Below, in pieces: positions 1,265 through 6,932 of a stretch of DNA of 27,924 nt. A model generated the notes under the pieces. It worked only from the letters and a program-made list of their open reading frames with translations, was not told the DNA's origin and made no database searches. The DNA is taken from the IMG/VR virus record IMGVR_UViG_3300028361_000018, one strand, 5' to 3'. Position 1 is the stretch's first letter, and each line of letters starts with the position of its first letter. The DNA comes from a virus (Duplodnaviria; Heunggongvirae; Uroviricota; Caudoviricetes). Both the position numbers and the translations under genes were made by a program.

Positions 1265-1267
1265 AGT

Positions 1268-1353
1268 ACCTCTGGTTCCTGACCGCAGCCTCCTAAGCTG
1301 TGTCTTAAAGTTAGGTGGATGGTTTTGAGGTTCGATTCCTCCCAGGGGTTCCA
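1268..1353 (+). tRNA. atypical tRNA-like gene, anticodon CCT (Arg), lacking a D-arm
   Basis: Acceptor ACCTCTG/CAGGGGT + T + CCA; arm GCAGC-CTCCTAA-GCTGT; T-arm GAGG-TTCGATT-CCTC; only 10 nt between acceptor and anticodon stems; 24-nt extra region. Confidence 0.7.
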
Positions 1354-1700
1354 AATACCCAGATACACAATTCATTGTGTATAGCATTGGCAACAGTGTT
1401 ATACACAATGCAGAGTAGACAAGTAGAGTAGCATAGCTAACAACTGGTCAGCCGAGAGTCAAGTAGGCAAAGTATGGCCGTGGTACCCGAAACACAAATG
1501 TCTTGACAATGGGTATTCAGGGATCGGATGCAATTATGCCGACCCAGTATACGGTAGTTTACGGTGGAAATCCGCTAAGTGGTTTGCGACCCAGCTGCAT
1601 TTTTAGTAGTTAGCACATTAGTTTAAAACATGACGGCTCGTAGATGTGTAAAGGGTACAAGGTCGCCGTCCTTCCTTGTACGCCGGACGATACCTAACCA
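1354..1700 (+). ncRNA. candidate large structured ncRNA between two tRNA genes
   Basis: No credible ORF; pairings 1354-1361/1510-1517, a 17-bp GCAA-capped hairpin 1373-1410, 1458-1463/1502-1507, 1436-1441/1609-1614, and a pseudoknot 1632-1681. Confidence 0.6.
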
Positions 1701-1713
1701 GCACCTTGTTATA

Positions 1714-1789
1714 GACGCGGTGGCAGAGAGGCTATGCACCGGATTGCAGCAATCCGTGAACGCCGGTTCGAATCCGGTCCGCGTCTCCA
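1714..1789 (+). tRNA. tRNA-Cys-like gene with a 9-nt anticodon loop (TTGCAGCAA)
   Basis: GACGCGG/CCGCGTC acceptor, U73 discriminator, CCA, GCA/TGC D-stem, GCCGG-TTCGAAT-CCGGT T-arm; loop is 2 nt longer than canonical TTGCAAA. Confidence 0.85.
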
Positions 1790-5418: not shown

Positions 5419-5889
5419 ATGTTAAAGCCAAACTTATATATGCTGATCGGAGTGCCTGGCTCAGGCAAGAGCACCTTTGTAGACGCGCAAGACCATAACT
5501 TTGTACATATCTCAACCGATTATTATGTTGAGAAGTTTGCTAAGAAAATGGGCAAGACCTATAATGAGGTGTTTAGCCTAACCATTAAACGTGCAGACCG
5601 CTTGATGATGCGAGCAGTCCGTCGAGCTCGAGAAAAAAGGCTGGACATTATTTGGGACCAGACCAACACAACAGCTAAGTCACGAGCCAAGAAGCTTGCT
5701 ATGCTACCAGAATATAACAAGACAGCATTATACTTTGAGACACCACCGGCTGATATCTTAGCAGAGAGATTGGCAAATCGCCCGGGCAAAGAGATTCCAG
5801 TCCGTGTGATGAAAAGTATGATTCAACACTTGAAAAAGCCTACCCTGGACGAAGGTTTTACTAAGATACAAGCGTTTACTACATTTTAA
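5419..5889 (+). CDS. P-loop kinase, polynucleotide-kinase/AAA_33-like
   Basis: GVPGSGKST Walker A, ISTD, IIWDQTN, RLANRPGKEIP lid. Confidence 0.85.
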   Translation: MLKPNLYMLIGVPGSGKSTFVDAQDHNFVHISTDYYVEKFAKKMGKTYNEVFSLTIKRADRLMMRAVRRAREKRLDIIWDQTNTTAKSRAKKLAMLPEYNKTALYFETPPADILAERLANRPGKEIPVRVMKSMIQHLKKPTLDEGFTKIQAFTTF

Positions 5890-6353: not shown

Positions 6354-6932
6354 ATGAAAACTAACAAAACAACAGAGAATACAGCAATGCGTACATTCAT
6401 ATCGTCTGATTTGCACCTGGGGCACCGAAATATTCAAAAGTTTTGTCCTAAGACACGCGGTCACTACACTGACGTAGATAACATGAACGAAGAAATGGTG
6501 CGTGAGTGGAACACTATGATCAACACAGACGACCTTGTGTACATCTTAGGTGATGTTGCGTTTATGCCAGCACCTAAGGCAGTTACATTCTTAAAGCGCA
6601 TGAACGGCCGTAAGATTCTCGTAGAAGGAAATCACGATCAGAAGCAGCTCAAGGACAACAGCTTTCGTGCCTGCTTTGAAGAAATTCACAAGTACCTAGA
6701 CATTCGTTACGCTGATCGAAAGATTGTGATGTTTCACTATCCTATCCATTTTGAATGGGATCAAGCGCATCGAGGATCAATTCACTTTCATGGCCACTTG
6801 CATGGAAGTCCGTCAGGTCTGGAAGGGCACCGAGCACGAGATGTAGGTTACGACGCCACTGGACAAATAGCAATGCTAATGGAAGACGCTATTGCTAGCG
6901 TTGCTAACGGTAAACTACCAGAACACCACTAA
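6354..6932 (+). CDS. calcineurin-like metallophosphoesterase
   Basis: SDLHLGH, LGDV, GNHD, FHYP and FHGHLH motifs. Confidence 0.9.

Follow-up and report, generated by a model that had tools for sequence, protein, structure and literature searches.

A conserved, predicted pseudoknotted RNA in the tRNA operon of T4-like phages from saline lakes

What occupies the interval between two unusual tRNA-like genes in the tRNA and RNA-repair island of a T4-like phage? The interval lies at positions 1354–1713 of a 27,924-nucleotide (nt) stretch, hereafter the window, taken from a 92.6-kb virus record of IMG/VR (IMGVR_UViG_3300028361_000018). A first-pass annotation, made from the letters alone, had marked it as a single structured RNA of ~350 nt bounded by two tRNAs. 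Comparison with relatives indicates two modules instead: a conserved unit at ~1373–1601 on the + strand (~230 nt), referred to below as the core, and a separate module at 1627–1713. Comparative sequence analysis shows the core to be a domain that helix P1 closes off; its centre is sequence-invariant and predicted to be pseudoknotted, and its covarying peripheral hairpins number five (Table 1). We read it, with a probability of about 0.55, as a stand-alone, processed and trans-acting RNA whose invariant pseudoknotted centre would bind a specific partner.

A covarying RNA domain with an invariant centre

The annotation's statement that 1354–1713 holds no credible open reading frame (ORF) was borne out: stops occur in all three + frames, and the core copies of relatives differ by 1- and 2-nt insertions or deletions (indels). 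One frame contains TAG stops only, over 341 nt; coding under a reassigned stop was considered and ruled out by these indels and by base-pair compensation. Folding z-scores against shuffled sequences were −2.74 on the + strand and +0.14 on the − strand for 1354–1713, −3.34 on the + strand for the core (0 of 200 shuffles were equally good) and −3.42 on the + strand for its homologue in contig L002. The + sense is also backed by G–U pairs within the core fold.

Homologues of the core were identified on ten contigs from about seven lineages (L002, L011, L013, L014, L015, L025, L031, L032, L033 and L036), at 62–100% identity to the window; all stem from T4-like phages in lake or salt-lake metagenomes. 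L002 was found by a neighbour-gene search (its RNA ligase is 72% identical), L011, L013, L014 and L015 in one metagenome pattern scan, and L031, L032, L033 and L036/L037 via contigs of RNA-ligase relatives at 65–68% identity. With covariance model R1, L031, L032 and L033 score 143–151 bits; with model R2, L036/L037 score 157 bits. All public runs containing the core sequence are labelled as lake-water, salt-lake, hypersaline-lake, aquatic or outdoor metagenomes, and the core RNA was found in two IMG/VR records only. The RNA models found no match in L023 and no paralogue elsewhere in the window's 92.6-kb record, and pattern hits in L005, L006, L008, L021 and L022 were set aside as chance matches rather than homologues.

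Covariation was assessed on an alignment of the ten sequences fitted to a structure model of 65 pairs, with 500 shuffles and slid alignments as controls. Standard pairing is present in 97.1% of alignment cells, compared with 27–44% in the slid controls. In 26 of the 65 pairs both partners have changed; shuffles give 8.0 ± 2.0 such pairs (0 of 500 as many) and slid controls 2–6. Relatedness among the sequences inflates the shuffle tests, and a further caveat is the fitting of the alignment to the model. These compensatory changes among the collected homologues uphold the annotation's central claim of a conserved, structured non-coding RNA. Inside P1, 90 of 195 positions are invariant across the full range of identity, concentrated in 1449–1492 and around 1510–1523; the invariant runs are CAGCCGAG, GUAGGCAAAG, GCCGUG and ACCCGAAA.

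Table 1. Features of the interval and its flanks, in window coordinates.
Feature	Position	Strand	Description
D-arm-less tRNA-like element	1267–1353	+	8-bp acceptor stem, T arm, CCA, anticodon-type loop CUCCUAA
Variable spacer	1354–1372	+	Outside the conserved RNA; eight bases missing in L013, L015 and a Sequence Read Archive (SRA) variant
H1	1373–1410	+	13- to 17-bp hairpin, GCAA loop; nine covarying pairs
P1, 5' strand AAUGCAG	1407–1413	+	Pairs with 1595–1601 and closes the domain; overlaps base of H1
P2	GAC 1418–20 / GUC 1447–49	+	Part 1418–1449; encloses H2
H2	1429–32 / 1436–39	+	Triloop hairpin; three of four pairs covary
Conserved centre	1450–1517	+	H3, small hairpin and pseudoknot helix; longest invariant runs
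H3, GTCAAG/CTTGAC	1458–63 / 1502–07	+	Two covarying pairs
Small hairpin of centre	1466–68 / 1477–79	+	Position in the fold
Pseudoknot helix GGUACCCG/UGGGUAUU	1482–89 / 1510–17	+	Crosses H3
H4, GGGATCGG/CCGACCC	1520–27 / 1539–45	+	GGG, bulged A, 4-bp stem, variable loop; four covarying pairs
Joining strand AGUA-ACGG-UAGU...	1546–1561	+	Mostly conserved in the ten-sequence alignment
H5	1562–64 / 1572–74	+	3-bp stem, heptaloop UGGAAAU; stem changes CGG/CCG to CAG/CUG
H6	1581–83 / 1589–91	+	Part 1581–1591; variable loop; two covarying pairs
P1, 3' strand CUGCAUU	1595–1601	+	End of the conserved RNA
Linker	1602–1626	+	Leftover 5' arm of a hairpin
Pseudoknot-like module	1627–1713	+	Directly 5' of the tRNA in the window
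tRNA-Cys-like	1714–1789	+	47.5 bits; 9-nt anticodon loop UUGCAGCAA

The closing helix P1 covaries at five of its seven pairs; L031, for instance, has CAGGUAG/CUACCUG there and L036 has CAA/UUG. H1 is predicted to be a peripheral, dispensable arm because it is shortened in L032 and absent from L031 and L036; in L033 it is different. Within the domain, P2 changes from GAC/GUC to GCC/GGC in L036, H2 occurs with the variants UAGC, UGGC, CAAC and UUGAC, and the H6 stem reads GGU/ACC, GGGG/CCCC or CGGC/GCCG.

Every motif and coordinate quoted by the annotation is present in the sequence, and three of its five proposed helices are backed by covariation. GTCAAG/CTTGAC is H3, with the variants UCAGG/CCUGA and GUCGAG/CUCGAC in homologues; GGGATCGG/CCGACCC is H4; and the T-loop-like hairpin GGTGGAAATCC is H5 (1562–1574). 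T-loops have a G–C closing pair, U at loop position 1, a purine at position 4 and A at position 5. The pattern U-G-R-R-A-R-U, with a G–C closing pair, is kept in H5 in 10 of 10 sequences, making its heptaloop compatible with a T-loop by these sequence rules.

The two remaining helices lack such support. For AATACCCA/TGGGTATT, eight bases overlapping the 5' arm (at 1351) are missing in the nearest relatives, L013 and L015, and in the SRA variant, and the arm is absent from all other homologues too; TGGGTATT pairs instead with GGTACCCG (1482–89). All 80 cells form this pairing, the pseudoknot helix of Table 1; one change in it is compensatory (U–A to C–G in L033) and three are one-sided. The centre is predicted to be pseudoknotted because the helix crosses H3; an invariant nested alternative pairing (GCC/GGU) competes with it. 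For GCTAAC/GTTAGC, GCTA forms the 3' arm of H2; GTTAGC falls beyond the conserved RNA, and L011/L014 lack it.

Further contacts were tried and dropped. A pairing between the 5' strands of H4 and H5 looked conserved in three lineages and is broken in L031; the second strand of an 11-nt GNRA receptor (UAUGG/CUAAG) is not conserved; and L002 does not keep a pairing between the 9-nt tRNA loop and the 3' strand of P1. Within the genome, antisense matches do not rise above chance.

Variable flanks and the tRNA and RNA-repair island

The annotation placed the RNA between two aberrant tRNA genes. Both are aberrant in the window, one lacking a D arm and the other having a 9-nt anticodon loop, but in several relatives the flanking tRNAs are normal. 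The upstream element is silent in ARAGORN and matches the Rfam tRNA-Sec model at 23 bits, below cut-off; both its acceptor stem and its anticodon stem show covariation in L002 and L029. Counterparts are located at ~1688–1775 in L002, 487–572 in L029 and 2994–3081 in L004 (Nitrincola phage 1M3-16), and the loop is Arg-type (CCU; UCU in the Nitrincola phage). In L004 this element is preceded by a ~630-nt non-coding region (2366–2993), in which a 15-bp stem closes two T-arm-like hairpins and a GUAGG-UGGAAAU-CCUAC hairpin resembles H5; the region has no match to the core RNA models. A canonical tRNA-Arg(CCU) stands upstream of the core in L011, L031, L032 and the SRA variant, its CCA lying 4 nt from the core in the last. 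The D-arm-less element looks like an insertion that replaced the canonical tRNA-Arg(CCU), because in L029 it adjoins the leftover 3' end of such a tRNA and in the window an HNH remnant lies just upstream.

The spacer that follows is unrelated in L002, L011 and L014. In L011, L014, L025 and L036 a small ORF precedes the core and no tRNA comes directly after it, and in L033 an odd tRNA (1200–1273; Phe, anticodon AAA by ARAGORN) directly precedes it. On the 3' side, the hairpin of which the linker retains one arm is intact in L033, as a 14-bp terminator-like stem with a U tract right after the core, and in L002 it borders an additional conserved block, ~250 nt long. This non-coding block, absent from the window, lies 3' of the core in L002 (2060–2315), L031 (5175–5354) and L032 (5433–5605), occurs also in the core-less contig L034 (6831–7019), and is likely another uncatalogued RNA. 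Further downstream, the tRNA-Cys(GCA) of L013, L015, L031 and L032 has a normal 7-nt anticodon loop. The 9-nt loop UUGCAGCAA is common to the window and the 66%-diverged L002 (2564–2641), and for this reason the 2-nt insertion is evidently not a one-off error.

From these comparisons, an RNA set between two aberrant tRNAs appears as the derived layout of this genome and its nearest kin. The annotation had further proposed that processing of the flanking tRNAs releases the RNA precisely and that it acts with the two tRNA mimics. Both ideas belong to this one genome arrangement and not to the RNA family, because relatives carry canonical tRNAs, or a small ORF and no tRNA, at the flanks.

The same flanks bear on whether the core acts in cis within a polycistronic transcript, as an RNase processing site, a 3' stabiliser of the upstream tRNA or ORF message, or a regulator of downstream genes. 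The core abuts the stop codon of the upstream ORF in L011, L014, L031, L032 and L036, or a tRNA 3' end, is followed by the terminator-like hairpin in L033, and has no promoter of its own that we could find, all as such an element would have it. However, almost every lineage has its own downstream context, be it a tRNA-Cys cassette, an extra RNA block, a small ORF or a second conserved element, and 90 invariant nucleotides with a pseudoknotted junction far exceed what a processing or stability hairpin needs, which makes a cis-acting role unlikely.

The module at 1627–1713 has a history apart from the core. Its predicted helices GACGGC (1632–37)/GCCGUC (1665–70) and GUACAAGG (1655–62)/CCUUGUAC (1674–81) cross. 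It is 94–97.5% identical in L031, L032, L036 and L037, whereas the core RNAs of L031, L032 and L036 are only 62–64% identical, and its variation is too low for a covariation test. The 80- to 87-nt copies lie at 5593–5680 in L031, 5639–5727 in L032 and 919–997 in L036, usually directly 5' of tRNA-Cys; in L036 no tRNA follows and the module stands alone before a promoter. A scan of viral contigs found none beyond the window's own record. The module may be either a recently spread cassette or a very strongly constrained element.

The window belongs to a T4-like phage, encoding topoisomerase II subunits, a DNA ligase, an Rnl1-type RNA ligase and a gp9/10-type baseplate protein. As annotated, the core lies beside RNA-repair enzymes, within an island of phage tRNA and RNA-repair genes. 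Its neighbours are a PHA02142-type RNA ligase, an AAA_33 (Pnk-like) kinase, a metallophosphoesterase and a dCMP deaminase; the island also encodes YqeY- and L12-like proteins, the RNA ligases number two in all, and one protein without a Pfam family is possibly Pth2-like, as read from its sequence. Across the window, ARAGORN and Rfam call one RNA gene only, the tRNA at 1714–1789. A promoter scan placed sigma-70-type promoters at 481–509 and 1813–1841 and none between, so the tRNA and core RNA region is most simply taken as part of a single operon transcript.

After the second promoter and 5' of the ORF at 2022–2357 lies a conserved non-coding element of ~150 nt (1846–2013), whose counterpart in L002 and L033 precedes the RNA ligase; its identity in relatives is 88–95%, with two compensatory pairs (little covariation) and no Rfam match. 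In the same phage record, contig L010 (− strand) has long ORF-free stretches with T-arm-like motifs at 6516–5365 and 1830–1600, that is, upstream of the window at −6515 to −5365 and about −1830 to −1600. They flank tRNA-Asn or come after tRNA-Cys, and suggest further tRNA-like or structured RNAs. The core has no similarity, by blastn or RNA models, to a ~650-nt RNA of the same genome.

Homing-endonuclease traffic is visible around the island, as an HNH C-terminal remnant just 5' of the tRNA-like element (1136–1264), an HNH gene and, after it, a duplicated tRNA 3' end in L002 (2682–3463) and a GIY-YIG gene that splits off an RNA-ligase fragment in L025 (1066–1955). With such genes and remnants abundant and the L029 copy of the core truncated, the RNA might be functionless debris of mobile elements, such as the relic of an intron or homing cassette. 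Against this, 26 compensatory pairs and 90 invariant positions across about seven lineages point to purifying selection on the fold, and we consider debris highly improbable.

A candidate trans-acting RNA

The fold is kept across about seven lineages while its neighbours change, be they a tRNA, a small ORF, an extra RNA block or a terminator-like hairpin. Because selection acts on the fold and leaves the flanks free, the core RNA behaves as an autonomous module. Three features stay constant: location on the gene strand, presence in the tRNA and RNA-repair island, and a position downstream of tRNA-Arg(CCU) or its D-arm-less replacement. On the favoured reading of a processed RNA acting in trans, transcription would start from the upstream promoter (481–509) within the tRNA operon, and the 5' end would be released by processing of the 3' end of the preceding tRNA or tRNA-like element, or by a cut after the preceding ORF. 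The 3' end would be trimmed back to P1, which in L033 the terminator-like hairpin follows at once. The fold could then present a specific binding surface for a protein or tRNA of the surrounding translation and tRNA-repair functions, namely both RNA ligases, the Pnk-like kinase, the phosphoesterase, the possible Pth2-like protein and the YqeY- and L12-like proteins.

Several observations weigh against this reading. No RNA run is among the public runs listed with the sequence. No partner protein co-varies in presence with the core RNA. L029 keeps only H1 and H2, its centre deleted, so the RNA can be lost. The family is also narrow: RNA-model searches found no core copy in L034 or L035 (RNA ligases 60% and 57% identical), in the complete 169-kb related phage L003 or in the Nitrincola phage, and a pattern scan of 185,579 prokaryote species, one genome each, gave no match. 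The model-fitted alignments and the inflation of the shuffle tests noted above count on the same side.

A supported fold, a pseudoknot and 90 invariant positions would together be the signature of specific binding or catalysis, and make the core a candidate for biochemistry. A bolder and quite unlikely proposal is that the invariant centre forms an active site or a tRNA-binding pocket, perhaps via the T-loop-like hairpin, which would make the core a new ribozyme or tRNA-recognising RNA. If true, the RNA would help to mature, repair or protect tRNAs of phage or host in the course of infection, and would give a clue to the purpose of the RNAs found after tRNA-Arg, such as rnaC and rnaD of T4.

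Relation to known structured RNAs

The annotation could not assign the RNA, and covariance-model searches of Rfam 15 likewise returned no family for it. For the whole window at the gathering threshold, only the tRNA at 1714–1786 was reported. At E up to 10, positions 1200–2020 gave nothing within 1450–1713 and chance-level hairpin matches on H1, and the divergent homologue in L031 (4900–5160) gave a single 10-bit chance match. The families covered include GOLLD, ROOL, HEARO, tmRNA, RNase P, group I and II introns, self-cleaving ribozymes and Y RNA. An RNase P reading was rejected on topology and the empty Rfam search. A permuted (two-piece) tmRNA was also rejected: ARAGORN predicts none here, the upstream element closes its own acceptor stem and no tag frame is conserved. 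ARAGORN does predict a permuted tmRNA gene in L003 (10654–11024), with the tag ANDEKFRIAA.

A survey of structured RNAs in IMG/VR reported candidates of 29–151 nt occurring in at least three IMG/VR regions (PMC10690425); the core RNA would not qualify, because it is longer and is found in two IMG/VR records only. We conclude that the core represents an uncatalogued, predicted RNA family of saline-lake T4-like phages, of a general kind, structured RNAs in phage tRNA operons, that is already known. Among these, ROOL (RF03087) and GOLLD (RF01998) are large phage or prophage RNAs of unknown function, ~580 and ~800 nt long, that often lie beside tRNA genes. The core resembles them as a multi-helix phage RNA but is much smaller and matches neither model.

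Group I introns (RF00028), which are frequent among T4-like phages, are of similar size, and their P3 and P7 cross much as H3 and GGUACCCG/UGGGUAUU do. Unlike them, the core has neither a P4–P6 domain nor P8, has 12 nt between the 5' strand of the crossing helix and the 3' strand of H3, and gives no RF00028 match at E up to 10. It also interrupts no gene and has no exons, with a complete tRNA or tRNA-like element before it and variable sequence after; the intron reading was rejected on topology and the lack of an Rfam match. Hepatitis delta virus (HDV)-like theta ribozymes occur by tRNAs in other phages, and the core is likewise a pseudoknotted RNA within a phage tRNA cluster. Their nested double-pseudoknot order P1-P2-P3-P1-P4-P2, however, is absent from both the core and 1627–1713 on reading the sequence, and this assignment was rejected on the same two grounds. 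Some other catalytic function, such as self-cleavage or tRNA processing by a ribozyme that helps to mature the phage tRNA operon, would suit the setting, and ribozymes and riboswitch aptamers typically combine an invariant pseudoknotted centre with peripheral helices that covary. Yet no Rfam ribozyme family matches even at the loosest threshold, the topology lacks the group I and HDV-like hallmarks, and neither end has a conserved cleavage-site context; catalysis of this kind seems quite improbable.

By position, the closest analogues are rnaD and rnaC of T4, for which, to our knowledge, no function has been established since the 1970s. In T4 (NC_000866, 70908–71171) the order is tRNA-Arg, rnaD (species 2 RNA, 119 nt), rnaC (species 1 RNA, 139 nt), and the record describes the two as small stable RNAs only. 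Like them, the core is non-coding, belongs to the tRNA operon of a T4-type phage and lies 3' of tRNA-Arg or its replacement on the same strand. Unlike them, it is one P1-closed pseudoknotted domain of ~230 nt rather than two RNAs, and where rnaC has a T arm and an acceptor-like 3' end, positions 1366–1605 give no tRNA-model match.

The core might be a very diverged orthologue of one or both, a possibility compatible with the trans-acting reading that the identical slot directly 3' of tRNA-Arg and the similar combined size would fit. Nevertheless, Smith–Waterman scores fall below the shuffle mean (434, 385 and 459 of 500 shuffles score as high), the T4 tRNA region gives no match with R1 (filters off) or R2, both shallow models that leave remote homology possible, and the rnaC T arm and acceptor-like stem are missing from the core. 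We regard orthology as distinctly unlikely and treat rnaD/rnaC as a positional analogue, not as family. By this analogy, the slot after tRNA-Arg seems to be reserved for structured RNAs: a distant T4-like branch keeps there an RNA that differs from those of T4, is larger and has a far more intricate fold, and that offers a fresh handle on the rnaC/rnaD question.
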